From an uncultured Kiritimatiellota bacterium (GTDB lineage: Bacteria > Verrucomicrobiota > Kiritimatiellia > RFP12 > UBA1067), in NCBI GenBank assembly GCA_934635385.1, contig CAKTZI010000020.1:1820-65819 (forward strand): 64,000 nt of DNA, read 5' to 3'. The translations under genes were made by a program, and so were the position numbers. This document shows, in pieces, positions 11,194 to 35,972 of this stretch. Position 1 is the stretch's first letter, and every line of letters begins with the position of its first letter. A model generated the notes under the pieces. The model saw only the letters and a program-made list of their open reading frames with translations. It was not told the DNA's origin and did not search any database.

Positions 11194-11277
11194 CGTATGC
11201 GGCTGATCGGGAACACGATCGTGTAGTTTTTTAAGGAGGCATATCGAGATGAATGTCTGTCTCGTGGCGCTTGGCTG

Positions 11278-11313
11278 CCTCATTCTCACTTTTTTAAAAA
11301 AGTGAGAATGAGG
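11278..11313. repeat. 36-bp perfect palindrome CCTCATTCTCACTTTTTTAAAAAAGTGAGAATGAGG between convergent genes (copy 1 of 2)
   Basis: Read directly. The second copy at 16212-16255 is also between convergent genes. Confidence 0.8.
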
Positions 11314-11334: not shown

Positions 11335-11760
11335 TCAGCTCAACGGACGGCCGTCTGCATCGGTGTCGATTGAGCAGATGTTGACCAAGATCCAGATTGC
11401 GAGAATGGGAAAGCCCACAAATCCGATGACGATGGACGAAGGAATACACGACAAAACAAGCACCACGAGCTGGGCGACACCCTGTCCTGCACGTCCGATG
11501 TAGAAGTTGTGAATGCCAAGCCAGCCAAGGCAAAGCCCCAACAGCACATAGGCCAGACGAGACTTGTTGCTCTTGTTGAGTTCGCGCTCGTGCCGCTCGC
11601 GTTCAATGCGCTCGATTCGCGAGAAGAACTGGTCTTGACGGTCTTCGTTCGCCTGCGCCTGCGATGTCCCATTCTTATTGGCAATTGGGTTTCCGCACTT
11701 CGGGCAAGATGCCGCCTTGTCAGACACGTCCGCACCACATTCACTGCATTTGATGAGCAT
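11335..11760 (-). CDS. N-terminal zinc-ribbon + TM2-domain membrane protein
   Basis: MLIKCSECGADVSDKAASCPKCG (CxxC...CxxC), then a TM2-like hairpin AYVLLGLCLGWLGIHNFYIGRAGQGVAQLVV. Confidence 0.65.
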   Translation of the reverse strand: MLIKCSECGADVSDKAASCPKCGNPIANKNGTSQAQANEDRQDQFFSRIERIERERHERELNKSNKSRLAYVLLGLCLGWLGIHNFYIGRAGQGVAQLVVLVLSCIPSSIVIGFVGFPILAIWILVNICSIDTDADGRPLS

Positions 11761-13818: not shown

Positions 13819-15231
13819 ATGGTTGGACGTTTTGAAGAGAGAGATGAACTGAATCGGCTCTATGAGTCGGGCGAGTCTGAGTTTGTCGCCGTCTATGGGC
13901 GCCGTCGTGTCGGAAAGACGTATCTTGTTCGAGAGACGTTTGGGGATCGCTTCTCGTTTTATCATACGGGGCTTCCGAATGCGCCTAAGAAACAGCAGCT
14001 GGCGTATTTCAAGAAATCGCTGGCCGAGGCCGGCTACAAGGGTGTTCAGCCCAAGGACTGGTTCACGGCGTTTTCGGCCCTGGGTGAGACGGTCGAGAAG
14101 TGTGGGATGCGTCGAAAGGTCATCTTCATCGACGAATTGCCGTGGCTGGATACGGCGAAGTCGGATTTCCTCATGGCGTTGGAGGCATTTTGGAACGAAT
14201 GGGCTTCCGCACGCAAAGACGTCTTGCTGATTGTCTGCGGGTCTGCGGCGGCGTGGATGGTCCAGAACCTCTTTCGCAATCGCGGCGGGCTTCACAACCG
14301 CGTGACGTCACGGATCTGCCTTCAGCCCTTTACACTCGACGAATGCTGGAAATTCGCCGAGGAAAGAGGCTTGAACATGAGTCGGTCGGATGTCGCCGAA
14401 TGCTACATGGCGTTCGGAGGAATCCCTTATTACTGGCGTTATCTGGTGCGAGGCTTGAGTCTTGCGCAGAACATCGACCGCCTGTGCTTCGCCATTGACG
14501 CGCCGTTGAGGCATGAGTTCGACGAGCTTTACGCTTCGCTTTTCAAAAACGCCGAAGCCTACAAGAAAGTCGTGACGGCCCTGGCCAAGAAAAAGGTCGG
14601 CATGACGCGAAGCGAACTCCTGTCGGCGTTGGGCGTTTTCCCGACGGGACGGATGACGGAGACGCTTGAGACGTTGGAGTCGAGCGGGTTCATCCGCAGC
14701 TACCGTTCGTACGGCGCCAAGAAAAAGAATGCGATTTATCAGCTGATCGACCCGTTTACGCTTTTCCATTTCCGATTTCTCGACGCACCTTCGTCGGATG
14801 AGCATTTCTGGGCCTCGACGTTGCTGTCGCCGGCGCAAGCCGCCTGGCAAGGGCTGGCGTTTGAACGACTGTGCCTGCTGCATCTTCGGCAGATCCGGCG
14901 GGCACTGGGCATTGATGCCGTCCATGTCGAAGCGTATGGCTGGAGCTTCAAGGGCGACGAGGCTTACCCGGACGGTGTTCAGATTGACTTGATCCTTGAC
15001 CGTGCGGACAATGTCATCAACGTCTGCGAACTGAAATATGCGACAGGAAGCTTCGTGATCGACAAGGCGTATGCGTGTGCCTTGGATCGGAAAGTGACGA
15101 CGTTTGCCGGTGTGACGAAAACGCGCAAGGCCGTCCACTTGACGATGATCACGGCAAATGGACTTCTCAAGAACACCTATTCGAGCCGCATTCAGACGGA
15201 GCTGACTCTTGCGGATCTGTTCGCGTACTGA
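13819..15231 (+). CDS. AAA+ ATPase with C-terminal DUF234-like domain (ATP-binding protein of the 'archaeal ATPase' family)
   Basis: Walker A VYGRRRVGKTYL, Walker B VIFIDELPWL. 470 aa. Confidence 0.8.
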   Translation: MVGRFEERDELNRLYESGESEFVAVYGRRRVGKTYLVRETFGDRFSFYHTGLPNAPKKQQLAYFKKSLAEAGYKGVQPKDWFTAFSALGETVEKCGMRRKVIFIDELPWLDTAKSDFLMALEAFWNEWASARKDVLLIVCGSAAAWMVQNLFRNRGGLHNRVTSRICLQPFTLDECWKFAEERGLNMSRSDVAECYMAFGGIPYYWRYLVRGLSLAQNIDRLCFAIDAPLRHEFDELYASLFKNAEAYKKVVTALAKKKVGMTRSELLSALGVFPTGRMTETLETLESSGFIRSYRSYGAKKKNAIYQLIDPFTLFHFRFLDAPSSDEHFWASTLLSPAQAAWQGLAFERLCLLHLRQIRRALGIDAVHVEAYGWSFKGDEAYPDGVQIDLILDRADNVINVCELKYATGSFVIDKAYACALDRKVTTFAGVTKTRKAVHLTMITANGLLKNTYSSRIQTELTLADLFAY

Positions 15232-15300
15232 CGTCTCTTTGAGGCATGAAGCTTAGCAACGCCGCAAATGGCGGTTCGTGATGAAAGGAGGCATATCGTG

Positions 15301-15420
15301 ATGAATGTCTGTCTCGTGGCACTTGGCAGCGCGCTGGGCGGTGTCGCCACGCTGTATGTCGGCCTCTCCGTCTTCGCCAGCCTCGCCGCCGTCGGCCTCG
15401 GCTACCTGCTGACGCGGTGA
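15301..15420 (+). CDS. 39-aa hydrophobic peptide MNVCLVALGSALGGVATLYVGLSVFASLAAVGLGYLLTR with strong SD AAAGGAGG; candidate small membrane or type-I-toxin-like peptide
   Basis: Below the ORF-track size cut-off. Degenerate paralogous copies at 11249-11305 (18 aa, runs into the palindrome) and about 37384-37422 on the minus strand (MTNVCLGHLLPR). Confidence 0.4.
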   Translation: MNVCLVALGSALGGVATLYVGLSVFASLAAVGLGYLLTR

Positions 15421-15434
15421 GGGGTTGGAGTCTT

Positions 15435-15470
15435 CGGGAACACGGTCGTGTAGCTTTTTGGTATAATTCG
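15435..15470 (+). promoter_or_regulatory. Promoter-operator CGGGAACACGGTCGTGTAGCTTTTTGGTATAATTCG (palindrome ACACGGTCGTGT over the -35 region; extended -10)
   Basis: Near-identical copy at 30328-30360 upstream of another PIN gene. Remnant (ACACGATCGTGT) at 11208-11226. Confidence 0.55.
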
Positions 15471-15487
15471 CGGCAAGGAGGTGAACG

Positions 15488-16211: not shown

Positions 16212-16255
16212 CCCTCCTCATTCTCACTTTTTTAAAAAAGTGAGAATGAGGAGGG
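16212..16255. repeat. 44-bp perfect palindrome CCCTCCTCATTCTCACTTTTTTAAAAAAGTGAGAATGAGGAGGG (copy 2)
   Basis: Read directly. Located between the convergent vapC (+) and the chitobiase-domain gene (-). Confidence 0.8.
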
Positions 16256-19310: not shown

Positions 19311-19401
19311 ACGCGAAAGCGCGTTGTATCGTCTTGCCCCCATTGACTGGCGGTGATTGAAATGATACACTATTCGCAAATCGCGAATGAGAGGAGCGGC
19401 A

Positions 19402-19908
19402 ATGCTGAAAGGACAGGATCTTGTTGTGCTTGCGGCGCTGATGGGGAACGAGAACGATACCTTGCATGAGCCGTATGCGGAACTTGGCAGACGCACGTGC
19501 CTGAGTGCATCAGAGACACATGCCTCGGTCAAGCGTCTGCTGGCGGCTGCTTTGCTGGGCGGCGACCGTCGGGTGCGCAAGCGAAATGCCCTTGAGTTCT
19601 TGGTTCATGGGCTTCGCTATGCGTTTCCGTTGCGTCCGCTGGGAGAAACGGCGAAGGGGCTTGCGACAGCCTACGCGGCACCTGTGGCAAGCGGGGCATT
19701 TGCCTCGACAGGACTGAAGCCCGTGTGGCGTTCGCCAGGCGGCGAGGTGTTCGGACAGGCATTTGAGCCTCTTTATGCGACAGCGCCTCAGGCGGCGGCA
19801 AAAGACAGGGGGCTGTATGATCGACTCGCCGTATTGGACATGCTGCGGGGTGGCCGCTTGCGTGAACGCCAGTTTGCGGAAGTGAAACTTGGGGAGATGC
19901 TGTCATGA
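19402..19908 (+). CDS. AbiEi-like wHTH antitoxin/regulator (putative)
   Basis: N-terminal wHTH-like GQDLVVLAALMG...SASETHASVKRLL. 4-nt overlap with the downstream nucleotidyltransferase. Confidence 0.4.
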   Translation: MLKGQDLVVLAALMGNENDTLHEPYAELGRRTCLSASETHASVKRLLAAALLGGDRRVRKRNALEFLVHGLRYAFPLRPLGETAKGLATAYAAPVASGAFASTGLKPVWRSPGGEVFGQAFEPLYATAPQAAAKDRGLYDRLAVLDMLRGGRLRERQFAEVKLGEMLS

Positions 19909-20588
19909 ATGACATTGCCGCTTCGATTGCCGTCCTGAACAAAAGGCTTGAAGGCATGCCGTTTGACTATGCATTCCTGGGCGGCTCGGTCTTGTCGCTT
20001 CTTGTCGATGATGCGACGGCTGACGCTGTTCGCGTCACGAAGGATGTCGATGTCATTGCGGACGTGCGAACGAGAAAGGATTTCCATCAGGAAGAGCGCG
20101 AACTGGAGGCGCGAGGCTTTCGGCATGACATGAGCGAAGACGCACCAATTTGTCGTTGGCTTGCGGAAGGCATCGTCGTGGATGTCTTGCCCGTACGAGA
20201 AGAAGTTCTTGGCTGGAAGTCTCGTTGGTTCGAAGAGGCGTTGCGATCCGCAGGGACAATGCAAATAGAAGACCAGCAGGTTAAGGTGATTTCAGCACCC
20301 TATTTTATCGCCCTGAAACTTGAGGCGTTTGAGGATCGTGGGAAAGGCGATTTCATTTCCAGTACGGATTTCGAGGACGTGATTTGCCTTTTCAACGGAC
20401 GGCGTTCGCTTGTGGACGAGATACTTGCGGAGCCAACGGTTGGGCGAGAAATCGCTGAAAAGTTTAAACAGTACGTGCAAGAGCCGGAACTGGAAGATGC
20501 CGTCACGGGATTTGTTCAGACCGAAACGAACCCCGAAGGTCGATTTGAATGCATCATGGATGCGGTTCGGAGGCTCGCCCGCAATTAG
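19905..20588 (+). CDS. Nucleotidyltransferase-fold protein, AbiEii/DUF1814-like toxin (putative)
   Basis: FLGGSVLSLL ... TKDVDVIAD (GS...DxD NTase motif). Confidence 0.5.
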   Translation: MNDIAASIAVLNKRLEGMPFDYAFLGGSVLSLLVDDATADAVRVTKDVDVIADVRTRKDFHQEERELEARGFRHDMSEDAPICRWLAEGIVVDVLPVREEVLGWKSRWFEEALRSAGTMQIEDQQVKVISAPYFIALKLEAFEDRGKGDFISSTDFEDVICLFNGRRSLVDEILAEPTVGREIAEKFKQYVQEPELEDAVTGFVQTETNPEGRFECIMDAVRRLARN

Positions 20589-20829
20589 GCTTGTCAGGGG
20601 CCCAGTTTGTCAAATAGGGAAGACACTCTGTAGGTAGCTTGGCGGCCAACACGCTTGCGCGCGCATTCGCCCACGAGCCGGAAAATATGGTATACTACAA
20701 GTGCTTTTGAAGGAGTAGGCTAGGCAAACTGCCGAAACTGGAGAAGGCAAGACCATAGTTCGAGAACTGATTCGGGCGTCAAGCGACTACGTGTGCGCCG
20801 ACTTCCGCGTCCACCCTCGGATACCTTAA

Positions 20830-20990
20830 ATCAATTTGCAACTGCAAAGCGATCGCCTACCGAAATGTGAGAAGTTTCAAAACGGACGATACTGTGCAGG
20901 AAGCGCAATTGCGCTTCCTCTCATTGTGTTTCCGTTTGGGCATTTCTCACAGCCTCGGTAGAAGCACAAAGGGAGGGTTTCTTTTTTGTG
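20830..20990 (+). promoter_or_regulatory. Conserved structured 5' leader (copy A), a candidate cis-regulatory RNA with a terminator/antiterminator, upstream of the zinc-ribbon operon at 21089
   Basis: Homologous to 31172-31332. Shared TCAATTTGCAACTGCAAAGCGATCG box, a covarying hairpin GGAAGCGCAatTGCGCTTCC versus GGGAACGCAtaTGCGTTTCCC, and a terminal GAAGC...GTTTC + T6 hairpin. Confidence 0.5.
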
Positions 20991-21088
20991 TGATTGCCGA
21001 GCGGTGAAAGCAACGCGCCGCATCTTTCGGTCTGCATGGATGCGCCCGTAAAGCAACGCAGACAAGAGAGAAAGGTGAAAGGTAGGCC

Positions 21089-22594
21089 ATGTTTTGCACA
21101 CAGTGCGGTCAGGAAATCAACGACAAGGCGGTCATCTGCGTCAAATGCGGATGCGCCGTCACGCCACAGGCTGCGCAGCCGATTGCGCCAGAAGTCAAGT
21201 CTGCGGACGAACTCCCTGAGAAATGGACATGGGCGTTGGCCACCGTCCCAATTATCGTCTCGTGGATACTGGCAGGGCTGTTGCCGACGGTGTTCGAAAA
21301 TAGCGACCCATCCCGGCTCGCGCACATCACGACCGCCGCGACCATCCTCCTGAATCTCATTTTCCTGTCGCTTGACGTGAAAGTCCTGAAGAAAGCGGAA
21401 CGTGACATCGAGAAGGCCTTATGGCTTGGGTTCATCTTGATCCCGGTCTACCTTTTCGTACGCGCGGCGAAGTATTCAAAGAAATACGCTCCGGCCATTG
21501 TCTGGTGCGTCCTTTTCGTGCTTGACTTGGTTGCCACAACAGATGAATTGGAAGAAAAGCAAGATTCCGCTGAGCAGAACGCAACCTATAGTCTTGAGAG
21601 CAGGGGCGTTCCTGTTGCGCAGGATACGGCGAAAACAGGCGAGATTGAAGACGTGGCTGAAACGGTCAACGAAATCACGGAGAATATCTCGCAAGAGGTT
21701 GTCCCTCCGTCGGACGTTCAAGAAGTTGTCAGTCTGCGGGATTTCGCGGTTCGTGAACCCTATCGAAGCCGTCGCATTGGTGATTTGCGAAAAGGGGCCG
21801 CCTACAAGTATGAGGCCCATCCCGGATACATGGAATCATACAAGGTGTTGCAGGTGGTGTCTGACGGATGCATTCTCGCGATCATGGATGTCGGCGATGA
21901 TCCTGACTTCTCCGAATACACACAAGCCGTTATTTTGGTCAAGACGAAGCGTGAATATGTTGATGACCAGTACCTTGAATCTGGCGTTTACGCCTATCGC
22001 GGAACTTACACATACGAAACTACGTTAGGCGGGTCGAAGACCGTTCCCCAGTTTCAAGAGGTTCGGGTAGATTCTTCACGGGAACGGAAGCCTGCGTCCA
22101 CTTCGAAAATCAATCTGAAAACCATCGTCGCCCGTGAAGACGGAAATGTGGTCGGTATGTTTGGCGTACGGCTTGGTGTTAAGGCGAAGGCCCTGTCGGA
22201 GAAAGACGTTGGGGCGATTGGCAAGCCAATTGTCGTTCCTGAATCTCAGGGTGGCGGCCTTTTGTACAGGTACGACTATCGGGGGAATCGTGGCATTTGG
22301 GACATGTTTACATTCCAAACGGAAGGCGAAGACAGCCCGGTGTTTTGCGTGGAAGCGGTTAAGTCTTATGATAACGAGGCGATGGCGTTGTCCGGCGCGC
22401 AGAGTCTTCTTGTGTTGCTGAAGAACCGTTATGGCGTTTCCATGACGAAGAATCAAATGGCAACGAAAGTCCATGCCTGGTTTCAGATCCTTAAGCAACC
22501 GCACAACACCGTCCTCGCGACTGTAAAGGTGGCCGGAAAAGAAGGAACCTACCTTTTGTCCTATTCAATGATGGCGCTTCCCCCAGACACGTGA
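21089..22594 (+). CDS. N-terminal zinc-ribbon multi-TM membrane protein with a C-terminal globular domain (501 aa)
   Basis: MFCTQCGQEINDKAVICVKCG, then 4 TM segments. The C-terminal segment YLESGVYAYRGTYTYETT is shared with the lipoprotein at 27293. Confidence 0.6.
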   Translation: MFCTQCGQEINDKAVICVKCGCAVTPQAAQPIAPEVKSADELPEKWTWALATVPIIVSWILAGLLPTVFENSDPSRLAHITTAATILLNLIFLSLDVKVLKKAERDIEKALWLGFILIPVYLFVRAAKYSKKYAPAIVWCVLFVLDLVATTDELEEKQDSAEQNATYSLESRGVPVAQDTAKTGEIEDVAETVNEITENISQEVVPPSDVQEVVSLRDFAVREPYRSRRIGDLRKGAAYKYEAHPGYMESYKVLQVVSDGCILAIMDVGDDPDFSEYTQAVILVKTKREYVDDQYLESGVYAYRGTYTYETTLGGSKTVPQFQEVRVDSSRERKPASTSKINLKTIVAREDGNVVGMFGVRLGVKAKALSEKDVGAIGKPIVVPESQGGGLLYRYDYRGNRGIWDMFTFQTEGEDSPVFCVEAVKSYDNEAMALSGAQSLLVLLKNRYGVSMTKNQMATKVHAWFQILKQPHNTVLATVKVAGKEGTYLLSYSMMALPPDT

Positions 22595-22645
22595 AGCCAC
22601 GGATGATGCGAATCAGCACGAGAAACAAGAGCATCAGAAAACCAC

Positions 22646-22990
22646 TTGATTATGTTCTGCCGACACTGCGGACACGAAATCAATAGCAAAGCGGTCCTCT
22701 GCCTGAATTGCGGATGCGCCGTCGATTCTGCCGAGCCGATGCCGGAGGCGTCAGCCCAAGCCGCCGTTCGCCCGAACGAATGGCTGGCGGCCGTCCTCCT
22801 GTGCATCTTTCTCGGCTCTCTCGGAATCCACCGCTTCTACACGAAGAACACGGCGGTCGGTGCCGCGCAGCTCGTCCTTGGGCTGCTCACCTGTGGCGTC
22901 GTCAGCTGGATTTGGTCGTTCATCGACATGATCATGCTTTTGACCGGCAGCTACACAACGGGTGACGGTCGTTTCCTGACAAAAAACTAA
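22646..22990 (+). CDS. Zinc-ribbon + TM2-domain protein
   Basis: MFCRHCGHEINSKAVLCLNCG, then WLAAVLLCIFLGSLGIHRFYTKNTAVGAAQLVLGLLTCG (TM2 signature). Confidence 0.7.
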   Translation: MIMFCRHCGHEINSKAVLCLNCGCAVDSAEPMPEASAQAAVRPNEWLAAVLLCIFLGSLGIHRFYTKNTAVGAAQLVLGLLTCGVVSWIWSFIDMIMLLTGSYTTGDGRFLTKN

Positions 22991-23015
22991 ACACAACGAA
23001 AGAGAGGTAGGTAGT

Positions 23016-23375
23016 ATGTTCTGCAAGGAATGCGGAGCCCAAATCAATGACAAGGCGGCGATATGCCCTAAATGCGGTGTGCCGGTCGCGTCGGCCAAGC
23101 CGGCCTTGGCGGAAAAGGAGAAGGTCTCGAACCACATGATCGAGGCGATCATCGTGACGCTTTTCTGCTGTCTGCCGTTCGGCATCGTTTCAATCGTCTA
23201 TGCGTCGAAGGTCAACGCGCGGCTTGCGATAGGGGATGTCGAGGGCGCCAAGGCGGCTTCACGTTTGGCCAATCGGTGGCTGCTGACGGGCGCGGGCCTT
23301 GCCGGTGCCCTTGGCCTTCTGTGGGCGGCCTTGTGCGCGCTGGGCGTGGTGAGCGAGGAAATGCTGGCGCTGTAA
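23016..23375 (+). CDS. Zinc-ribbon + CD225/dispanin-like membrane protein
   Basis: MFCKECGAQINDKAAICPKCG, then TLFCCLPFGIVSIVYASKVN (CD225-like). Confidence 0.65.
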   Translation: MFCKECGAQINDKAAICPKCGVPVASAKPALAEKEKVSNHMIEAIIVTLFCCLPFGIVSIVYASKVNARLAIGDVEGAKAASRLANRWLLTGAGLAGALGLLWAALCALGVVSEEMLAL

Positions 23376-23399
23376 AAGGAGCGCACCAAGAGGGATCTG

Positions 23400-23813
23400 A
23401 TGTCGTTTGTCCCTGCGGATCGAACGTTGTGCGACACGTCGGGCGATTCTGCTCGGCGTGCCGCGCGGCGTCCAAGATGGTGGGCGTTCATGATTGCTGC
23501 GTTCGCGCTTGCCGCCCTCGCGTTCCTCTACTTTTGCAATCCCTCCGACGTGCCGTATTTCCCACGCTGTCCGTTTCTGGTGCTGACAGGTTACCAGTGT
23601 CCGGGATGCGGGACGCTGCGCGGTATCCACAGTCTGCTGCATTTCAGATTTCGGGACGCTTGGGGCTACAATCCGTTTCTGGTCGTCTCGATTCCCCTGA
23701 TCGCGGCACTTGTGCTGTCCCCTCGCTTTCGCAGAAGCCCGCATGTGTCCAAAACGGGTCTCACGGCAATTCTCGCCTATTGGCTGTTGCGTAATATGGG
23801 GCTTGGGAGATAG
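23400..23813 (+). CDS. DUF2752-like membrane protein (CPxCG motif)
   Basis: FPRCPFLVLTGYQCPGCGTLRG plus TM helices. Confidence 0.5.
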   Translation: MSFVPADRTLCDTSGDSARRAARRPRWWAFMIAAFALAALAFLYFCNPSDVPYFPRCPFLVLTGYQCPGCGTLRGIHSLLHFRFRDAWGYNPFLVVSIPLIAALVLSPRFRRSPHVSKTGLTAILAYWLLRNMGLGR

Positions 23814-23825
23814 TGTCATTAGCTG

Positions 23826-25400
23826 GGGTCTGACACCCGTGGTAGGGTACAAGTGGTAGGGTTCGGCGGATTGAGGGGCCTGTCCCCAATCTGAACCGCA
23901 GAAAACGTCGAGAAATCGGACATTTTGAGCAGATAGCCTAAAATGAGGTATAATGTAGAACAAGTTCCTTTTTCACGGTGGAGAAGGACTTGTTCCTTGA
24001 CAACTGGCTGGATGGCATACGACTTGCAAACATGCCGACGCGCGCCTGCGCCGCGAAGCGCCGCGCGCGTCGGCATGTTCACAAGTCTTTCCGCCGGAAG
24101 CGGAAGATCCTCCCATTTGGTACAATGTGAGCTGGAGCGCACTGGCCACGGTGGCCGTGCAAAACACAGACAGACAGGAGGAACCAAATGAACGGAGAGT
24201 ATCATGCCACAATCGGCATGGACGTGAGCGACCGCACGACGAAAGTCTGCGTCATGTCCAAGGAGGGCGGCGCGAGGCGCATCCTCGAGAAGACGACGAT
24301 ACCCACGACGGGGGACGGGCTCCGGGCGTACCTTTCCGGCAAGGGCGCGGACTGGCCGGTGGTGTTCGAGACCGGCGCGCACTGCCGCTGGATGAGGCGC
24401 GAGGTCGAGTCCCTCGGCATGAGGGCGATCGTCGCCAGCCCGTCGAGGCTGCGGATGGTGACGGAGTCCGACACGAAGGACGACCGCAACGACGCGAGGG
24501 ATCTTGCGAGGCTCGCCCTCGCCGACGCGGAGCTGCTGCACCCGGTGAGGCTGCGCGGCGAGCGGTGCCAGCAGGCGCTGCGGCTGCTGAAGGCGCGGGA
24601 CATGCTCGTGAAGGTCCGCACGATGCACGTGAACGAGCTCAGGGGGTTCGCGAAGTCCATGGGCTTCAGGCTGCCGGACTGCCCCGCCAACAGGGCGCAC
24701 GCCATGGACAGGTCCGGGCGGCCCGCCGACTTCGAGGCCGTCGCCTGGCCGCTGATGGGCGTGCTGGAGACGGTGGACGTCAAGACAAGGGCCTGCGAGG
24801 CCCAGGTCCGGGCGCTCGTTCGGCGGCTGATGGTCGAGGCGGCGCAGATTGCCCTGCGAAGCGCCGCGAAGGACACGGACGCGAAGCTCAGGGGCGAGCG
24901 GATGTGCGCCAGGGGCGGCAGGATCGCGAAGAGGAAGGCCCTCGTCGCGGTGGCGCGCTGCCTCGTGGTGACGGCGGCGGCGCTCCTGAAGAGGCCCGAC
25001 GCGAAGTACGTGCCGCTGTCCGAGGCGGCCAGGCGCGAGTTCGAGGCGATGCGCGCGTCTGAGGCGTAGCCCGTCCGGAGGGAGGCTGCGGACACGGGGC
25101 GAAGACGACGGTTTCGGCGAAAAGCAAAGATGTCGCGTCGCGGGAGAGTGCGGACTTGGATTCTGCATCATCGAATGCGCCAATGAGGCAGCACCCCCGC
25201 CGACGCATTATAAGGTGCGCGGGCGACGAAAGTCCCAGAGCGCGGATAGGAGAAGGACATCACCTGCTTTCGCGGCCTGCGGAATCGCTCCGCGATGGCC
25301 TATTGACTTTTGTTCTCATAGGAGGTCTGATGCGGAAAATTCTGTGAGCAAAAAGTGTCAGACCCCAATGGTGGGGTTCGCGTGGTAGGGTTTGCGGGCG
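23826..25400 (+). mobile_element. IS110-family insertion-sequence-like element (boundaries approximate) flanked by ~45-bp direct repeats
   Basis: Flanks gtctgacacccgtggtagggtacaagtggtagggttcggcgg (23828-) and gtcagaccccaatggtggggttcgcgtggtagggtttgcggg (25357-). About 360-nt structured non-coding left arm, then a DEDD-type transposase. Confidence 0.6.
24188..25069 (+). CDS. IS110-family (DEDD) transposase/recombinase, short (293 aa)
   Basis: N-terminal YHATIGMDVSDRTTKVCVM (the IGIDVSK motif), LVKVRTMHVNELRGFAKSMGFRL, and C-terminal ALVAVARCLVVTAAALLK. Confidence 0.7.
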   Translation: MNGEYHATIGMDVSDRTTKVCVMSKEGGARRILEKTTIPTTGDGLRAYLSGKGADWPVVFETGAHCRWMRREVESLGMRAIVASPSRLRMVTESDTKDDRNDARDLARLALADAELLHPVRLRGERCQQALRLLKARDMLVKVRTMHVNELRGFAKSMGFRLPDCPANRAHAMDRSGRPADFEAVAWPLMGVLETVDVKTRACEAQVRALVRRLMVEAAQIALRSAAKDTDAKLRGERMCARGGRIAKRKALVAVARCLVVTAAALLKRPDAKYVPLSEAARREFEAMRASEA

Positions 25401-25561: not shown

Positions 25562-26515
25562 ATGAACGAGAAAAACCAGCTTGTGCTATTCAAGTCGAAA
25601 GACGGGCAAGTCAGCTTGCCCGTGACGCTGGAGCGCGAGACCGTCTGGCTTTCGCAGCGGCAGATGGCGGATCTGTTCGGGAAAGACCGAACGGTCATCG
25701 GACGTCATATCCGAAATGCGATAGATGAAGGTGAGATTGACGAGAAAGTGGTATGTGCAAATTTTGCACATACCACTCGTCACGGCGCGATGGAGGGACG
25801 TACTCAGAGCCAGAATGTCATTTACTACAATCTCGATGTCGTGATTTCGGTTGGCTATCGTGTGAAGTCGCAGCGCGGCGTCGAATTCCGGCGTTGGGCG
25901 ACGTCCGTGCTGCGCGACTATCTGCTCAAGGGCGCGGCTGTCAACGAAATGCGTCTGCGTCAGCTCGGACAGGCCGTCGAGGTGATGAAGCGCGTCTCGA
26001 ACCGACTGGACGCGGAACAGGTCTTGGATGTCGTCAAGGCGTACTCGTCGGCACTCGACCTTCTGGACGCCTACGACCATCAGACGGTTGGCAAGCCAAA
26101 AGCGCGGGCGCGCTCGGTCGAGCTGACTTACGCGGACTGTCGTGCGTTCATCGACAGCATGAAGTTCGCCGAGACGTCGCCGCTTTTCGGCAACGAGAAG
26201 GACGGCTCCTTCAAGTCAGCGTTGGGCGCGGTCTACCAGTCCTTCGGCGGAAAGGATCTCTATCCGTCGGCACAGGAGAAGGCGGCGAACCTGCTTTATC
26301 TCGTCACGAAGAACCACGGCTTCTCCGACGGGAACAAGCGCATCGCGGCTGGGCTCTTTCTCTATTTCCTCCAGCGCAACAGACTGCTGCTGCGCAAGGA
26401 CGGCTCCAAGCGCATCGCCGATTCGACGCTTGTCGCGCTGACGGTCATGATCGCCGAGTCGCGTCCGGCAGAAAAGGAAATGATGGTCAACCTCGTCATG
26501 ACCTTCTTGGCCTGA
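25562..26515 (+). CDS. RhuM-family N-terminal domain fused to a Fic/Doc domain
   Basis: RhuM-like VIYYNLDVVISVGYRVKSQRGVEFRRWATSVLRDYL. Doc-type motif HGFSDGNKR. Confidence 0.75.
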   Translation: MNEKNQLVLFKSKDGQVSLPVTLERETVWLSQRQMADLFGKDRTVIGRHIRNAIDEGEIDEKVVCANFAHTTRHGAMEGRTQSQNVIYYNLDVVISVGYRVKSQRGVEFRRWATSVLRDYLLKGAAVNEMRLRQLGQAVEVMKRVSNRLDAEQVLDVVKAYSSALDLLDAYDHQTVGKPKARARSVELTYADCRAFIDSMKFAETSPLFGNEKDGSFKSALGAVYQSFGGKDLYPSAQEKAANLLYLVTKNHGFSDGNKRIAAGLFLYFLQRNRLLLRKDGSKRIADSTLVALTVMIAESRPAEKEMMVNLVMTFLA

Positions 26516-26712: not shown

Positions 26713-27282
26713 ATGAGGAAGAACTTTGGGCCCAAGGCGTGGCTCTATCCGATGCCGGTGCTGATCATCGGCTCGTATGACGAAAACGGAATCGCGGATG
26801 CGATGAACGCGGCATGGGGCGGCATCTCGCTCGAAGACCGCATCTCGATCTGCGTGGACGATGCGCACAAGACGACAGCGAACGTGCTTGCGCGCAAGGC
26901 GTTCACGGTACACGTTGCGGATGTGAAGAACCTTGTCGCGTGCGACTACGTGGGGTGCGTCTCGGCAAACAAGGCGCCCAACAAGTTGGCGAAGACGGGA
27001 TGGACGGTCACAAAGAGCGCGTTTGTTGATGCGCCCGTGATCGAAGACCTGCCGATGGTGCTGGAATGCGAACTCGTGAGCTACGACAAGTCCGACTGCC
27101 GGATGGTCGGCAAGATCGTCAATGTCGGCATCGACGAGTCGGTCCTGACGCCCGACGGCAAAGTCGATGTCGCGCGACTCGCGCCAATCACATTCGATCC
27201 GGTCAACCACGTCTACCATAGGCTCGGTGAAACCGTCGGCACAGCGTTCAAGGCCGGACTCGCGTTGTCCGCCCGTGTGTAA
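26713..27282 (+). CDS. Flavin reductase-like FMN-binding split-barrel protein (start at MRKNFGPK after RBS CAGGAGG)
   Basis: WLYPMPVLIIGSYDENGIADAMNAAWGG is typical of this family. Confidence 0.7.
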   Translation: MRKNFGPKAWLYPMPVLIIGSYDENGIADAMNAAWGGISLEDRISICVDDAHKTTANVLARKAFTVHVADVKNLVACDYVGCVSANKAPNKLAKTGWTVTKSAFVDAPVIEDLPMVLECELVSYDKSDCRMVGKIVNVGIDESVLTPDGKVDVARLAPITFDPVNHVYHRLGETVGTAFKAGLALSARV

Positions 27283-27292
27283 GGGTACGCTA

Positions 27293-27724
27293 ATGATGAA
27301 GTGTGTTTCTGCTTTTGTGGTTGCCGCATTGATGGCGTGTGGCGGATGTGCCTCGTCACAGATGACGGCAGATGGTCGCCGAGTTGAAAATGTTTCGTTG
27401 CGGTCAATGTCGCACAATACGCATTCGCCAGAGGTTGGCAAGATTTATGTCCACAAAGGTGGACGAACCATGAATGTGATTCAGACTTTGGAGGAGGGGG
27501 TGTTGGTGCACCCCGTTGTGGGCGAGATGGAGTTTGAATGGAGAGGTATGGCTACAGTTAATGACAAGATGACTATTTACGTTGAGACCTCGCAAAAGTA
27601 TCTTGATGACGAATTCCTGAAAGTGGGCCTTTACGAATACGTCGGACGATACACTTACACGGTCATACACGATGTCCGACGAACAGTCCGTTGGTTTCGT
27701 GAAGTCAAATCTGCGACGGAGTGA
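27293..27724 (+). CDS. Putative lipoprotein (lipobox LMACGGC) sharing a C-terminal domain with the 21089 protein
   Basis: MMKCVSAFVVAALMACGGCASS. ...YLDDEFLKVGLYEYVGRYTYTVIHD parallels ...YVDDQYLESGVYAYRGTYTYETT. Confidence 0.5.
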   Translation: MMKCVSAFVVAALMACGGCASSQMTADGRRVENVSLRSMSHNTHSPEVGKIYVHKGGRTMNVIQTLEEGVLVHPVVGEMEFEWRGMATVNDKMTIYVETSQKYLDDEFLKVGLYEYVGRYTYTVIHDVRRTVRWFREVKSATE

Positions 27725-27756
27725 TATCCTATTGCTCCGGCATAAAAAGGATTGAT

Positions 27757-27860
27757 AAACTCCGATGATTGATGCTCTCGCGCGGCCTACGAGTAAAGGC
27801 AAATTCTATTCCGCGAACATTCGCGGCAAGTTCGACGGACGAAAGCTCCAATCCCAAACC
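27757..27860 (+). repeat. Composite remnant: hairpin-repeat left arm (as at 33029) joined directly to the 3' end of the KTSC gene (as at 34663-34735)
   Basis: aaactccgatgattgatgctctcgcgcggcctacg, then aaaggcaaattctattccgcgaacattcgcggcaagttcgacggacgaaagctc, near-identical to the end of the 34068 gene (KGKFYSANIRGKFDGRKL). Confidence 0.6.
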
Positions 27861-30327: not shown

Positions 30328-30360
30328 TCGGGAACACGGTCGTGTAGTTTTGTGGTATAA
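30328..30360 (+). promoter_or_regulatory. Second copy of the promoter-operator CGGGAACACGGTCGTGTAGTTTTGTGGTATAAT
   Basis: Near-identical to 15435-15470. Confidence 0.55.
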
Positions 30361-30427
30361 TTCGCGTGTTCCTTGGGCGGCAGCGATTCTGCCCTTGGAT
30401 GTCGTAATCAATTATGTCGTGCTTCGC

Positions 30428-31077: not shown

Positions 31078-31171
31078 CGCAATCTGATTTAAATTTTCAA
31101 AACTGCACCCCGAAAGGAACCCAAAATAACAGTTTAAGCGAGAGGCGGAAGTAACGCACCGCCAAACCAAG

Positions 31172-31332
31172 TCAATTTGCAACTGCAAAGCGATCGTCTC
31201 TGGAAACGTAGGAACTTTCGAGACTGACGACACTTAGCAGGGAACGCATATGCGTTTCCCTCCTTTTGTGTTTCAGTCAGGGCAATTCCTACGGCCTCCA
31301 GAGAAACATGAAAAGAGGGTTTCTTTTTGTGT
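31172..31332 (+). promoter_or_regulatory. Conserved structured 5' leader (copy B) upstream of the SPFH/zinc-ribbon operon
   Basis: See copy A. Terminator-like GAAAC...GTTTC + T5. Confidence 0.5.
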
Positions 31333-31423
31333 CCGATTGCCACGCGGCGAACCGGCACGGAAAGGAGGATGGCCCGTTCTCGATCCGTGAGACAAGTCAC
31401 AGGGCAGAAACAAGGAAAATTCG

Positions 31424-32578
31424 ATGGCACTGATCGAGACGTTGAAATGGGACGGCGCGCCAAACGTGTTCGCGTTCCGCTACCCCAATTGCGAGCTGAC
31501 GACCAAATCGCAGGTTGTCGTCTACGAATCGCAGGAGGCCGTGTTCGTCAAGGACGGCCAGTTCTTCGAGCCGCTGGGGCCCGGTCGCCATATCCTTGAC
31601 GCGAAGAACTTCCCCTTCCTCACGCAGCTGGTCACGGGCCTCGTGACGGGCGGCGAGTCGCCGTTCAGCGCCGAGGTGTGGTTCGTCAACAAGGCCATTC
31701 CGCTGGACATCAAGTGGGGCACGTCCGAGCCGATCCAGGTCGAGGACCCGAAGTACCACGTCATGATGCCCGTGCGGGCCTACGGGCAGTACGGGCTGCA
31801 GATCGTGGACACGCAGAGGTTTCTCGCGAAGCTTGTCGGGCGCGTCCCCGTCTTCGTGACGAAGACCCTGAGCGCCTACTTCAGGGGAATCGTCATCACG
31901 TCGGTCAAGGACCGCATCGCCACCTACTTGGTGAACGAGGCCGTCTCGGTGCTGCAGATGGGAAGCCGACTGACGGAGGTGTCGTCCTTCCTTCAGGACG
32001 AGCTGACGAAAGAGCTGCAGGACTACGGCGTCCGCGTGGCGTCCTTCAAGGTCAACTCCATCACGGCGGACGAGAGCGACCCCGCCGTGGCGCAGCTGAA
32101 GCGGGCGTTGGCCAAGAAAGCCGAGATGGAGATCGTCGGCTACACCTATCAGCAGGAGAAGTCGTTTGACGTGATGAGCCGGGCGGCGGGCAACGAAGGA
32201 GGCGGCGCCAGCGCGTCCGTCATGCAGACGGGCATGGGACTTGGACTGGGGATGGGGTTGGGCGCACCGCTTGGCGGCGCGGCGGCTGGCCTGGCGACGC
32301 ATCTCCAGCTGGACGGCGGCGAAAAGTCCGTCTGCGGCACATGCGGCGCAACGCTGCCGGCGGCGGCGCGCTTCTGCCCGAACTGCGGTACGGCGCGCGA
32401 GTCCCGCAAGGCAGAAGGCTGTCGGTGCGCGAGATGCGGGATCGAGTGGGCGAAGCCGTCGCGCTTCTGCCCCAACTGCGGACTGGAGATGACGCCCGAA
32501 AAGCGGACGTGCCCCGCGTGCCAGACGGAACTGCCTCCTTCGGCGAAGTTCTGTCCCAACTGCGGAAAGGAGGCGTGA
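31424..32578 (+). CDS. SPFH/band-7 domain protein with a Gly-rich linker and four C-terminal zinc ribbons
   Basis: N-terminal SPFH-like region (MALIETLKWDG..., ~250 aa). Linker MGLGLGMGLGAPLGGAAAGLA. Four CxxC-x10-17-CxxC ribbons (CGTCG...CPNCG, CARCG...CPNCG, CPACQ...CPNCG). Confidence 0.75.
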   Translation: MALIETLKWDGAPNVFAFRYPNCELTTKSQVVVYESQEAVFVKDGQFFEPLGPGRHILDAKNFPFLTQLVTGLVTGGESPFSAEVWFVNKAIPLDIKWGTSEPIQVEDPKYHVMMPVRAYGQYGLQIVDTQRFLAKLVGRVPVFVTKTLSAYFRGIVITSVKDRIATYLVNEAVSVLQMGSRLTEVSSFLQDELTKELQDYGVRVASFKVNSITADESDPAVAQLKRALAKKAEMEIVGYTYQQEKSFDVMSRAAGNEGGGASASVMQTGMGLGLGMGLGAPLGGAAAGLATHLQLDGGEKSVCGTCGATLPAAARFCPNCGTARESRKAEGCRCARCGIEWAKPSRFCPNCGLEMTPEKRTCPACQTELPPSAKFCPNCGKEA

Positions 32579-32580: not shown

Positions 32581-33033
32581 ATGTTCTACAAACGGAGCAT
32601 CTGGGCGATCGTCGCCCTCGCGATGGCGCTTGCCGCCGCCACGTTGTTTGTGGTCAGGGAGGCCCCCTACTCACGGAACTTCTGGTTGGAGCTGACACTG
32701 CTGATGGTCGCGCTCGCGGCCGCCGGATGGCAGGGGGCGTGTTCCGTCGACCATCCGGGCTCGTCGCTGCCGTTTCCGCTGGCGAGTCTGCGTCTCACGC
32801 TGCGGTATGCCGTCTTCGTCCTGCTCATGGGCGTCCCCGTCCTCCTCGACATCAACATCCGGTTCAAGTACTATGCCCTGGCGCACGGCTTCGGACTGGG
32901 GCTTTGGCTGGCCGCGCTCATCGCCCTGCGGATGGGGACGCATGCGGTCGACGAGCAGGATGCATCAGACCGTCAGCGGACAAAGGCGCAGCGCGAACAT
33001 TCGATAGATTCATCACCAGAATATTGTAATTAA
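32581..33033 (+). CDS. Four-TM membrane protein, hypothetical
   Basis: Starts 3 nt after the SPFH gene stop. Hydrophobic helices. Confidence 0.45.
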   Translation: MFYKRSIWAIVALAMALAAATLFVVREAPYSRNFWLELTLLMVALAAAGWQGACSVDHPGSSLPFPLASLRLTLRYAVFVLLMGVPVLLDINIRFKYYALAHGFGLGLWLAALIALRMGTHAVDEQDASDRQRTKAQREHSIDSSPEYCN

Positions 33034-33077
33034 CTCCGATGATTATGGCTCTCGCGCGGCCTACGGCTCGGAGTTAA
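33029..33077. repeat. Hairpin repeat ttaactccgaTGATTATGGCTCTCGCGCGGCCTACGGCtcggagttaa
   Basis: Same family as 455-615 and 27757-27792. Confidence 0.55.
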
Positions 33078-33135: not shown

Positions 33136-34062
33136 ATGAAGTGCGAATACTGCGAGAACGAAATCCCCGGATCAACAGCCAACTTCTGCCCTTTCTGCGG
33201 GGCGAAGGTTGAATGTGAGACGAAGGTTGAAATGCCGCCAGCAGCCCCCGTGGAGACATCTTGGCTGAAAGGCATGTCTTGTGGTGGCGTCAGCGTGCGG
33301 TGTGGCGACGCCAAGGAAAAGACGGAGGCCCTTGTCGGTTCTGACGATTCCGATACGTCACAGGAGGAAGAGATCCGCGCGTATATCCGCGACAAACGCC
33401 AATGCGGTTGGTTTGAAAGCGTCGATGTCGTCGCATACGGCTTTGTCCCGAATTCGGGTGAGACGGTCTATGCCCTTATTCCGAACGTGATGCTGAACGA
33501 GACGAGGAGCATCCGACGGTCACACACCGCCAAGTCCGGTTCCAGCAGTTACGACTACGAAGGGCAGTCCGAAAGCAAGACTTATTACGAGTTTCAGGAG
33601 GTGACGCGCGGACGGCTGTTCCTGACGAGCAAGCGAATCGTCTTCACGGGCGGACAGCAAGTGCGCAACATCCTATTTACCGATATCGTGTCCTTTGAGT
33701 CGGACTGGCAGGCAGACGAAGGCGCCCTGCAGATTTCGTCGTCCAAAAGAACGAAAACCATGCGTTTTACAGGGGCGAGCGTCTTTCTTTTCACAACGCT
33801 GTATCAGGCACTCCGCAACGAGAGATTCCGTGCGCTTCTGGAGTCGGGGCCAGAGGATGAACTGGTCGAAAAGTTCAAGGAGATGGGACTGTTCAAGCCG
33901 AAGCCAAAGCCACAACCTCTGCCTAAACCCAAACCGGTTCAAAAGACGCCGCAGAATGACGGGGACGGTTGCGGTATTGGCTGTTTTGTATTGTTCATTT
34001 TCGGAGCTATTTTTGCACTGATTTTAATTTACGAGATCTATCAGATGGGAACATCTAACTGA
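33136..34062 (+). CDS. Zinc-ribbon + bacterial PH-like domain + C-terminal TM anchor protein
   Basis: MKCEYCENEIPGSTANFCPFCG, a PH/GRAM-like segment LFLTSKRIVFTGGQQVRNILFTDIVSF, a KPKPKPQPLPKPKP linker and a C-terminal TM helix. Confidence 0.5.
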   Translation: MKCEYCENEIPGSTANFCPFCGAKVECETKVEMPPAAPVETSWLKGMSCGGVSVRCGDAKEKTEALVGSDDSDTSQEEEIRAYIRDKRQCGWFESVDVVAYGFVPNSGETVYALIPNVMLNETRSIRRSHTAKSGSSSYDYEGQSESKTYYEFQEVTRGRLFLTSKRIVFTGGQQVRNILFTDIVSFESDWQADEGALQISSSKRTKTMRFTGASVFLFTTLYQALRNERFRALLESGPEDELVEKFKEMGLFKPKPKPQPLPKPKPVQKTPQNDGDGCGIGCFVLFIFGAIFALILIYEIYQMGTSN

Positions 34063-34067: not shown

Positions 34068-34712
34068 ATGACTATGGACTTGCCCTCTTACACACGCGGA
34101 AAAACGACGTATTACGACACGGCGGGGCTCTCGATCAGTGAGAGTATGGCAGTTGCCTTTCAGGCCGGCTTAAAAGGGAAAGGCTTCGAAGTCTTTGATT
34201 CAACCCAGATGGACTGCCCGAAATGGGTAGAGCAGATGGTGCTGGCGCGGCGACATCGAGAGGCGAAAGCGAACGAGTTTGCCCGTGCAAGGCAAACGTC
34301 GCAGGAGGATCTCTTCAAGCCAAAGATGCTCAGGATTGATTCTGAGCCGTCGCCGCAACGAGAGGCCACAGCCCCTGCGACGCCGCCGTGGACATGCGAA
34401 TATTGCGGTAAATCGAATGACGCGCAAGAGTCCGCTTGCCGTGGATGCGGCGCGCCGAATCCGCACGGCGAAACGTCAGCCGTTGCACCGAAGAAGGTTG
34501 ACGTCTTCATGGATGCGGTGGTCTCGTCCGTCATCGCCGCCATCGGCTATGACGAGTACGCGAAGCGACTCGTCGTGCGCTTCAAGTCCGGCGCGGCCTA
34601 CGAGTACCTGAACATCCCGAAATCGCTTTACGCCGAACTGATGGCGTCCGAGGCGAAAGGCAAGTTCTATTCAGCGAACATTCGCGGCAAGTTCGACGGA
34701 CGAAAGCTCTAA
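34068..34712 (+). CDS. RanBP2-type zinc-ribbon + KTSC-domain protein
   Basis: WTCEYCGKSNDAQESACRGCGAP, and a C-terminal KTSC-like IGYDEYAKRLVVRFKSGAAYEYLNIPKSLYAELMASEAKGKFYSANIRGKF. Confidence 0.6.
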   Translation: MTMDLPSYTRGKTTYYDTAGLSISESMAVAFQAGLKGKGFEVFDSTQMDCPKWVEQMVLARRHREAKANEFARARQTSQEDLFKPKMLRIDSEPSPQREATAPATPPWTCEYCGKSNDAQESACRGCGAPNPHGETSAVAPKKVDVFMDAVVSSVIAAIGYDEYAKRLVVRFKSGAAYEYLNIPKSLYAELMASEAKGKFYSANIRGKFDGRKL

Positions 34713-34728
34713 TCCCAAAAGAAGCTTC

Positions 34729-35184
34729 TTACGCCAAACTCTTCAGCAGCGCCGCGCACCCTTCGGCAACATCGTCGTAAGTCGCGTCGAAATTGCCGGT
34801 GTACCACGGGTCGGCGATGTCGCGCGCCTTCCCGGCGAACTCCAGCAGCCGGTGAATCTTCGGACGATCCTCCGGGTAGACGAGCCGCTTCAAGTCCGCG
34901 ATGTTGTAGGCGTCCATTCCGATGAGGAGGTCGTATTCGCGCGCCTTCGCCGCCGTCAGGAGCCACGCCGCGCGCGGCGCAAAGTGAATGCCCTGCTCGC
35001 GCAGCTTGGCGCGTGTGCCCGGATGGATGTCGTTGCCGATCTCGTCCGTATGCAGCGCGGCGGATTCGATTTCGATGTCCGTACGCCCCGCGCGGCGCAC
35101 GAGGTCTTTCATGACGAACTCCGCCATCGGCGAGCGGCAGATGTTCCCGTGGCAAAGGAAGAGGATTTTCAAAGATGGCTTCAT
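34729..35184 (-). CDS. Low-molecular-weight protein-tyrosine phosphatase
   Basis: P-loop LFLCHGNICRSPMAE and a DPWY motif. Confidence 0.85.
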   Translation of the reverse strand: MKPSLKILFLCHGNICRSPMAEFVMKDLVRRAGRTDIEIESAALHTDEIGNDIHPGTRAKLREQGIHFAPRAAWLLTAAKAREYDLLIGMDAYNIADLKRLVYPEDRPKIHRLLEFAGKARDIADPWYTGNFDATYDDVAEGCAALLKSLA

Positions 35185-35245: not shown

Positions 35246-35839
35246 TCAGGCCTTGTAGCCGCACTTCGGGCAGACGCCGTTCTTGAGGGCGATGCCGCAG
35301 AGCGGACAGCGGTCGAGCGACAGGCGGGACGGGAACGACGCCGTCGCCGCGTTGACGCCGCTCGTGAAGGTGATCTTCACGATGTTGAGCTTGTCCTTCA
35401 GAAGCTCGTACACCATCTTGATGAACCCTTCGACGGTCATCGTCTCCTTCGTGACGACAAGTCGGCATTCGGGATAGGCGGTGCAGAGCTCCGTCTTGAA
35501 CGCGGGCCCTTTCATCGTGTTCGTCGGCGTCCCGTTGCGGATGCCCTCCTTTTCGTAGACGGCGAGCACGGCCGGCAGAAGCGGATCGTCCTCGCGCAAG
35601 ACGAGCGCGTGGTCGAAGTTCTTGAGAACCTCCCAGGCCGTCTTCTGGATCTCGTTGCAGGGGAAGACCATGTTGACGCCGGGATTGACCGAATCCTCGA
35701 CCTCGATGGTCAGTCCGCCGGTGTGCCCGTGCAAGTATCGGGCCTCGCCCCTGAATCCGTAGAAGCGGTGTGCATACTGGATGTCGAGGTGCGCGACGGA
35801 GCGGATGGTGGTGCAGGTGCAGTTCTTGTTCGTGTTCAT
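35246..35839 (-). CDS. 6-pyruvoyl-tetrahydropterin synthase/QueD-like protein with C-terminal zinc ribbon (start at MNTNKN)
   Basis: RFYGFRGEARYLHGHTGGL, a CxxxHGH-type zinc site. C-terminal CPLCG...CPKCG. Confidence 0.65.
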   Translation of the reverse strand: MNTNKNCTCTTIRSVAHLDIQYAHRFYGFRGEARYLHGHTGGLTIEVEDSVNPGVNMVFPCNEIQKTAWEVLKNFDHALVLREDDPLLPAVLAVYEKEGIRNGTPTNTMKGPAFKTELCTAYPECRLVVTKETMTVEGFIKMVYELLKDKLNIVKITFTSGVNAATASFPSRLSLDRCPLCGIALKNGVCPKCGYKA

Positions 35840-35972
35840 GAGCGTGTTCCTTTCTGTGTTTTGGGTTAAGCCGGGAGAGACGTTCGCCCGATGCCGCACA
35901 GAATACACTATTGCCCACGCACCTGTCCGTTGTAATTACAACAGGATCTCACCAAGATTTTAGGGAACGACA

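Follow-up and report, generated by a model that had tools for sequence, protein, structure and literature searches.

Zinc-ribbon membrane proteins of a gut Kiritimatiellota bacterium form two conserved modules joined by a structured RNA leader

Results

Two gene clusters and their zinc ribbons

The subject of this work is a pair of gene clusters in a 64,000-nt stretch of contig CAKTZI010000020.1 from an uncultured Kiritimatiellota bacterium. This whole stretch is referred to as the window, and all positions are counted from its first letter. The clusters encode proteins with short zinc ribbons, membrane-associated domains or both, and each cluster is preceded by a copy of the same RNA leader. 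Their genes and domains were examined by open reading frame (ORF) calling, Pfam searches, hydropathy and motif scans (Table 1).

Cluster 1 consists of four tightly spaced genes in the same orientation (A–D). Their products carry the domains named in the original prediction, which had been made from the sequence before this analysis: a zinc ribbon followed by four transmembrane (TM) segments and a globular part, a ribbon with TM2, a ribbon with CD225, and DUF2752. The called gene D may begin at 23490. A further ribbon–TM2 gene (T), which had also been predicted, is present on the minus strand, and the leader is absent there.

Cluster 2 (E–H) was predicted to encode an SPFH protein, a four-TM (4TM) protein, a ribbon protein with a pleckstrin-homology (PH)-like domain and a TM segment, and a ribbon–KTSC protein. 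All four were found, but E has three ribbons rather than the four that had been counted. The ribbons begin at residues 304, 335 and 363, after the Gly-rich stretch, and the Band_7_1 domain spans residues 18–235 (136 bits against a cut-off of 24). E contains no TM or other hydrophobic segment and had no match in the PDB when searched by sequence. The AlphaFold model of G, with a predicted local distance difference test (pLDDT) score of 84, has the PH-like fold, which we defined as a seven-stranded beta sandwich with a capping C-terminal helix: the strands extend over residues 111–213 and the helix over 216–227. Its PDB matches were PH-like domains (DENND3, GRK2 and MTMR6; best Foldseek E value, 4.7e-4), and relatives of G gave weak, sub-threshold profile matches to Vps36-GLUE, GRAM and bPH_3.

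The zinc ribbon is a module of ~22 residues with four cysteines. A scan of the window for the pattern CxxC-x7-20-CxxC in ORFs of at least 60 amino acids (aa) returned eight ORFs, all within 11.3–35.9 kb. The ribbons had been described as a single N-terminal type, whereas three subtypes were found: CxxCGxxIxDKAxxCxKCG in A, B, C and T, xFCPxCG in E, and ribbons with a CEYC first knuckle in G and H. Those of E are C-terminal and that of H, which is RanBP-like, is internal (aa 110–127). Over 72 nt at their 5' ends, A, B and C share 68–81% DNA identity, which suggests that these three ribbons were recently copied from one another. The two clusters are not paralogous gene for gene, as had been proposed; they have just the ribbon motif and the leader in common.

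Table 1. Positions of the operon genes, the leader copies and other features in the window
Feature	Position	Strand	Description
Leader copy 1	20829–21006	+	Paired core 20842–21004; 5' of cluster 1
A	21089–22594	+	N-terminal zinc ribbon, 4 TM segments, fused part of ~350 aa
B	22652–22990	+	N-terminal zinc ribbon and TM2 (PF05154, 54.5 bits; cut-off 27.9)
C	23016–23375	+	N-terminal zinc ribbon and CD225/dispanin (PF04505, 70.6 bits; cut-off 27.1)
D	23400–23813	+	DUF2752 membrane protein (PF10825, 69 bits; cut-off 27)
Leader copy 2	31170–31349	+	Paired core 31183–31347; 5' of cluster 2
E	31424–32578	+	Soluble SPFH protein (Band_7_1, PF13421, E=1.5e-39), Gly-rich linker, three C-terminal zinc ribbons
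F	32581–33033	+	4TM protein without a Pfam match, short form of the family accompanying E-type genes
G	33136–34062	+	N-terminal CEYC zinc ribbon, PH-like domain, Pro/Lys-rich linker, C-terminal TM anchor
H	34068–34712	+	N-terminal region of ~105 aa, CEYC zinc ribbon, KTSC (PF13619, 66 bits)
T	11335–11760	-	Zinc ribbon (DKA type) and TM2 (39.4 bits; cut-off 27.9); left island edge
PDC-S27	13819–15231		Candidate defence system (PADLOC match, E=5e-190)
PDC-M21A/B	19387–20588		AbiEii-like pair, strong PADLOC candidate match; immediately 5' of cluster 1
PDC-S23	25562–26515		RhuM-Fic, strong PADLOC candidate match
Predicted lipoprotein	27167–27724	+	Domain in common with the fused part of A
Remnant of a second cluster 2 copy	27755–27858	+	Post-F region joined to the 3'-terminal 60 nt of H; G and the bulk of H lost
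Tyrosine integrase	35973–37292		Closes the island

A structured RNA leader precedes both operons

A leader RNA shared by the two clusters had been predicted, and the analysis showed that a common stretch of ~180 nt lies upstream of each and is a covarying RNA. The leaders are ~165–180 nt long, and the two window copies are 74–78% identical. In addition to the window copies, relatives precede operons of the cluster 1 type in loci L004 (2391–2570) and L177 (3582–3758) and operons of the cluster 2 type in L176 (526–709), L084 (4412–4591), L085 and L093 (568–721).

Every leader begins with the invariant palindrome TTTGCAA-N2-4-(C)TGCAAA, which is followed by a long three-part hairpin and then by an A/U-rich hairpin. 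When the folding was compared with that of shuffled sequence, z-scores of -6.0 (copy 1) and -5.2 (copy 2) were obtained. Among five sequences, 92.7% of the cells were paired, as opposed to 36–55% with the partners slid, and 26 pairs had changed on both sides, as opposed to 2–7 in the slid controls; the observed values were reached by none of the 500 shuffles. With seven sequences, compensatory changes were seen at 25 of the 60 pairs. The invariant G–U pairs indicate an RNA on the sense strand. The whole window yielded no tRNA and, at the gathering thresholds, no Rfam match, and the region 20700–21100 had no Rfam match even at E ≤ 1. These results indicate that the leader is a conserved structured RNA with strong covariation, and we regard it as a new candidate cis-regulatory RNA.

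A sigma-70 promoter scan of the leaders gave nothing convincing. The lone terminator call in the leader scan proved to be the apical hairpin of the leader itself.

CD225 and DUF2752 are neighbours across phyla

The neighbourhood of DUF2752 was examined by a profile scan with one genome per species, from which the best 80 loci were retained. A CD225 gene was found immediately upstream on the same strand in 60 of these loci and at another position of the locus in 8, while 12 had none; in 3 of these 12, a ribbon–TM2 gene takes the CD225 position. All neighbours counted as CD225 passed as such by Pfam (84/84). Since their N-terminal module is GYF_2 in 42 and Zn_Ribbon_1 in 19, the cytoplasmic module of CD225 is interchangeable.

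The nearest DUF2752 relatives come from metagenome-assembled genomes of Kiritimatiellia, Lentisphaerae and Verrucomicrobia. In these relatives from the PVC (Planctomycetes–Verrucomicrobia–Chlamydiae) group, the operon order is ribbon–TM2, ribbon–CD225, other ribbon genes and DUF2752, and the flanks are occupied by housekeeping genes (gyrase, DnaB, TsaD, YchF and RuvC). In Bacteroidales, the CD225–DUF2752 pair is found within dtd-deoC...uvrA synteny. The core of operon 1 is thus a CD225 (IFITM-like) hairpin protein paired with DUF2752, a combination that is widely conserved and that ribbon–TM2 and ribbon–4TM genes extend here.

Cysteines are conserved in both proteins. Residues C51 and C52 of C, which form the double-cysteine motif of the first hydrophobic segment, are near-invariant among the 84 homologues. 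DUF2752 has the invariant motif FPRCPF..LTG..CPGCG..R..H, in which C27, C37, C40 and H47 are invariant. Its model (pLDDT 90) is all-helical; a search for structural relatives of this model found none, and the DUF2752 profile had no sequence match in the PDB. The family is not mentioned in the literature searched, and we know of no eukaryotic counterpart.

An SPFH scaffold gene with a near-constant 4TM neighbour

More than 2,700 homologues of E were found, and the architecture of SPFH plus ribbon is retained among them. The neighbourhoods of E were studied in 86 loci from metagenomes and assemblies, which represent 42 clusters at 70% identity; this number of clusters argues against the E loci being one recently spread mobile element. 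The F family was defined iteratively, and its adjacency to E was scored over the 70 loci with enough sequence. F adjoined E in 64 of them, immediately downstream in 61 and immediately upstream in 3. Members of the F family have four TM segments and frequently a C-terminal coiled coil; neither TPM nor a consistent Pfam match was detected in F and 20 relatives.

ORFs with a ribbon and a TM segment are concentrated behind E: their density was 0.47 per kb downstream on the same strand and 0.03 per kb upstream or on the other strand, and at least one such ORF was present downstream in 55 of 57 loci but upstream in only 2 of 47. The partners are varied. They include ribbon–TM2, G-like ribbon–PH–TM, ribbon–KTSC, DUF4190 and Imm_superinfect proteins and many C-terminal-ribbon proteins without a family. 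In L084, L090 and L176, G-like genes follow F and ribbon–KTSC genes end the operon, as in the window. The C[ED][YFW]C knuckle was seen in 58 of 78 E-partner ribbons (74%), but in none of the 241 E ribbons and none of the 28 DUF2752-linked ribbons. Some E–F loci have rpsO-pnp or gyrA-folP as neighbours. Operon 2 is thus a YdjI-type SPFH scaffold module with F as near-constant neighbour and G and H as accessory genes.

Many of the short F-family proteins (among them those of L127, L130, L150 and L169) share a ...PKRGGF/L tail. YdjG of Bacillus subtilis ends in ...MGGGF, judging by the primers in PMC8581546, and the two tails could be a common C-terminal docking motif.

In the independent loci L179 (1213–3346) and L180 (1999–3850), which have one-ribbon E-type genes, the genes for an extracytoplasmic function (ECF)-like sigma factor (Sigma70_r2) and for a Ser/Thr kinase are found just upstream, with a toxin–antitoxin pair between them and E–F. 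By analogy, this sigma factor and kinase may be a regulator comparable to the sigma-W control of ydjI.

The mosaic gene A

Only six homologues of A were found. Its 4TM module recurs elsewhere behind GYF_2 domains (GYF_2–4TM proteins), and when it was compared with the F family, no relation was seen. Residues 279–326 are common to A and the predicted lipoprotein encoded at 27167–27724 (BLASTP, 40% identity over 48 aa, E=5e-9). A relative in L004, which is 88% identical to A, has the ribbon and the four TM segments without the globular part. The globular C-terminal part of A is, on this sequence comparison, a strain-specific fusion and A itself a strain-level mosaic. Because of this and the small number of homologues, A says little about function. 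If the four predicted TM segments are correct, the fused part should be cytoplasmic. The domains homologous to it sit in lipoproteins with signal peptides (P0002 and the 27167–27724 gene).

Mixed operons link the two modules

Several operons combine genes of both types. TM2–DUF2752–E–F is the order in L100, and E–F, ribbon genes and DUF2752 follow one another in L103 and L104. E–F–ribbon–TM2 was found in L088, L094, L110 and L120, and in L180 a TM2 gene is close to E–F. The best description of the system is a pair of conserved modules, linked by one RNA leader in a Kiritimatiellia-like lineage.

Discussion

Since the architecture of E is that of B. subtilis YdjI, an envelope or membrane role is plausible. 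YdjI is a soluble protein with an SPFH domain and a zinc finger, whose membrane localisation needs YdjG and YdjH (PMC8581546); together with these two proteins it recruits PspA (PMC8581546, PMC11237479). Both E and YdjI are soluble SPFH proteins with a low-complexity linker and C-terminal ribbon(s), and in both cases the SPFH gene adjoins membrane-protein genes, among them one for a protein with zinc ribbon(s) and a TM segment. YdjG combines a pair of ribbons with a TM segment (PMC11237479). G likewise joins a ribbon to a TM segment, but its middle part is PH-like, whereas that of YdjG is NTF2/YpeB-like by description (PMC11237479). E differs from YdjI in its three ribbons, and its CEYC-ribbon partners, including PH-like, KTSC and TM2 proteins, are unlike those of YdjGHI. 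The putative control also differs, being a structured RNA leader here and a sigma-W promoter in the case of Bacillus ydjGHI.

The best explanation of the two operons, with about an even chance of being correct, is a ribbon-tagged module for membrane organisation or envelope stress. The shared leader would switch on both operons together. F would anchor an oligomer of the SPFH protein E under the membrane, and the ribbons, especially those of the CEYC type, would act as docking tags, bringing small membrane-hairpin proteins into the SPFH scaffold or next to it. The ribbons lie on the cytoplasmic ends of these inner-membrane-associated proteins, and DUF2752 would be the dedicated partner of CD225. 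GYF_2 or SHOCT may play the part of the ribbon in other lineages. The outcome might be that the membrane is locally reorganised or is protected during envelope stress, by analogy with PspA–YdjGHI and IFITM.

Several observations weigh against this explanation. There is no pspA among the called genes of ~10.6–47 kb of the window, nor in L084–L088, L176, L179 and L180. F represents a new family of 4TM proteins, some of which have a coiled coil, whereas YdjH is a TPM-domain protein. For most CD225–DUF2752 pairs, notably those of Bacteroidota, no SPFH gene lies within 4 kb. The ribbon subtype of cluster 1 differs from that of the SPFH-operon ribbons, so that the tie of the cluster 1 ribbons to E rests on the leader and a few mixed operons. 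The similarity between E and partner ribbons was 8.81 within a locus and 8.49±0.72 between loci, and 651 of 2000 shuffles were as high; the idea of matched pairs of E and partner ribbons was dropped, as the within-locus likeness is no higher than that between loci. Finally, the fusion in A may be a recent deletion product of doubtful function and possibly non-functional, because its domain would be cytoplasmic whereas the relatives of this domain are lipoproteins.

An unlikely alternative is anti-phage defence or superinfection exclusion, in which the IFITM-like CD225, TM2 and SPFH proteins would change the inner membrane so that phage genomes cannot enter, or would set off membrane-based abortive infection. 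It is suggested by the low-GC ~26-kb island ending at an integrase, which holds both clusters together with PDC-S27, PDC-M21A/B next to cluster 1, PDC-S23, PIN and Fic modules and IS110. Phages carry KTSC proteins and ribbon–TM2 proteins (phrog_10292, a family matched by B and, at 1e-21, by T), one partner in the E operons matches Imm_superinfect, and eukaryotic CD225 proteins restrict virus entry (PMC7665892). However, in PADLOC v2 the proteins A–H and the lipoprotein had no match and T had one weak, ribbon-only match (E=0.004), and the homologous operons of Bacteroidales, the PVC group and the E–F loci with rpsO-pnp or gyrA-folP lie amid housekeeping genes. A phage module was ruled out, as 2.9 million viral contigs hold five E loci and no DUF2752 locus. 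A type I toxin–antitoxin reading was rejected on the size of the small proteins (112–141 aa), their conserved multi-gene operons and their core-genome contexts. The operons are not a recognised toxin or defence system. Where the original prediction proposed envelope stress or phage defence, the former is plausible and the latter draws on the island of this genome alone.

SPFH genes can pair with genes for NfeD membrane partners. It is quite improbable, though in keeping with E being a bona fide SPFH protein, that the scaffold is a cage like HflK/C, stomatin–NfeD or flotillin, which would regulate the turnover or assembly of particular membrane proteins, with the ribbon proteins as its substrates or regulators rather than as modifiers of the membrane. 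The likeness lies in an operon that pairs an SPFH gene with the gene for a small integral membrane protein, as in the flotillin and SPFH–NfeD systems (YuaF/YqiJ, HflK/C–FtsH). F is such a near-constant adjacent partner, and the variable ribbon proteins resemble a set of clients; pairing of band-7 proteins with YqiJ/YuaF has been described (PMC11237479). Nevertheless, E itself lacks a membrane anchor, F shows no relation to NfeD and carries neither an OB-fold nor an NfeD signature, and no protease, NfeD or AAA+ gene is present in the operons examined.

It could also be argued that there is no joint system and that unrelated small membrane proteins with a generic ribbon were juxtaposed by duplication in a mobile island. 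Ribbons of the PF13240 type are short and very common, the similarity of the A, B and C ribbons suggests recent copying, segmental duplication and deletion have occurred in the island, and A is a recent mosaic. This is nonetheless highly improbable and already largely refuted by the neighbourhood statistics: the adjacency is kept over dozens of species and environments, the ribbon subtype is specific to each operon type, and the covarying leader is common to both operon types in several genomes. The homologues are not scattered without linkage. The conserved linkage that had been expected was upheld for CD225–DUF2752, for E–F and for the ribbon partners downstream of E. The earlier idea of a coherent membrane system survives in part, in this linkage, the mixed operons and the covarying leader, but as two modules and without a single ribbon.

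The view that the system corresponds to no characterised one that can be named agrees with the lack of PADLOC and NCBIfam matches and of any mention of DUF2752; an NCBIfam search of ten proteins (A–H, T and the lipoprotein) gave nothing useful. The operons belong to known kinds, namely YdjI-type SPFH systems and bacterial dispanins, and are not a categorically new system. Meanwhile, the CD225–DUF2752 pair, the F family with its CEYC-ribbon partners, and the leader RNA appear to be undescribed in the literature searched.

Two other systems bear a partial likeness to the ribbon-tagged proteins. SHOCT is a short terminal module seen most often on PF13421 proteins and, in addition, together with TM2 and with PH domains of bacteria (Eberhardt et al. 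2013; PMC3581485). The logic of a shared tag is the same, but a Cys4 zinc ribbon takes the place of the two-helix SHOCT domain; SHOCT showed no self-association in the single published test. TcaA of Staphylococcus aureus also has a cytoplasmic N-terminal zinc ribbon followed by a TM segment. The match of T to the TcaA model is weak and confined to the ribbon (16 bits against a cut-off of 550), and there is no relation between the two proteins in their membrane or extracellular parts.

As to the proteins of the CD225/dispanin family (IFITM, PRRT2 and the mycobacterial IFITM-like proteins), C resembles them in its two hydrophobic segments and double cysteine, and the corresponding double cysteine is palmitoylated in IFITM3 (PMC3282796). 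C differs from IFITM in its N-terminal zinc ribbon, replaced by GYF_2 in other species, and in its downstream partner DUF2752. What the CD225/IFITM-like proteins of bacteria do, and why their "palmitoylation" cysteines are conserved, are regarded as open questions (PMC3282796). A speculative and rather improbable further reading is that the invariant Cys-x9-CPGC-x6-His of DUF2752 acts on or pairs with the CD225 double cysteine, for example by lipidation, metal bridging or disulfide exchange, and that the pair, the SPFH–F scaffold and the CEYC-ribbon clients make up a riboregulated toolkit for reshaping the inner membrane when needed, against envelope damage or phage entry. If true, CD225–DUF2752 would be a prokaryotic forerunner of palmitoylation-controlled IFITM function.

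Irrespective of this, DUF2752, as a partner conserved across phyla, provides a concrete two-gene system for bacterial CD225. Only from one Bacillus operon is it known how the soluble SPFH scaffolds of the YdjI type reach the membrane and their clients, and the widespread E–F core, the swappable ribbon partners and the diagnostic CEYC ribbon suggest a general docking rule. The leader ties both modules into one putative regulon in gut Kiritimatiellia.

The island and neighbouring genes

Protein copies with 100% identity were found in human-gut metagenome contigs only. The G+C content of the window is ~60%. The island, which extends over ~11.3–37.3 kb, has a G+C content of ~51–63% and its flanks 60–72%. 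An IS110 transposase gene, three PIN genes and a RhuM-Fic gene are among its cargo. A RhuM gene is also present 3' of the DUF2752 operon in the relative L177; as RhuM follows the DUF2752 operon in both cases, IS110 (24188–25069) looks inserted into conserved synteny.

The originally predicted remnant of cluster 2 is real. Its positions 27755–27791 correspond to 33029–33065 (89% identity) and 27795–27858 to 34656–34719 (95%), and the remnant is best read as the deletion junction of another cluster 2 copy. A perfect 36-nt palindrome, CCTCATTCTCACTTTTTTAAAAAAGTGAGAATGAGG, occurs twice, at 11278–11313 and 16216–16251, and short segments near PIN/toxin–antitoxin genes are duplicated (11207–11278 compared with 15285–15472 and with 30328–30366). 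This palindrome pair and the short repeats are signs of segmental duplication within the island.

Beside cluster 2, the minus-strand gene at 35246–35908 encodes a 6-pyruvoyl-tetrahydropterin synthase (PTPS/QueD-like) with an extra C-terminal zinc ribbon (CPLCG...CPKCG), and it is adjoined by a low-molecular-weight phosphatase gene (34729–35184). Just beyond the island, a giant minus-strand gene (~40850–56600) encodes a product of ~5,249 aa with Zeta_toxin, winged-helix and helicase domains; the region of this gene has a strongly negative AT skew.

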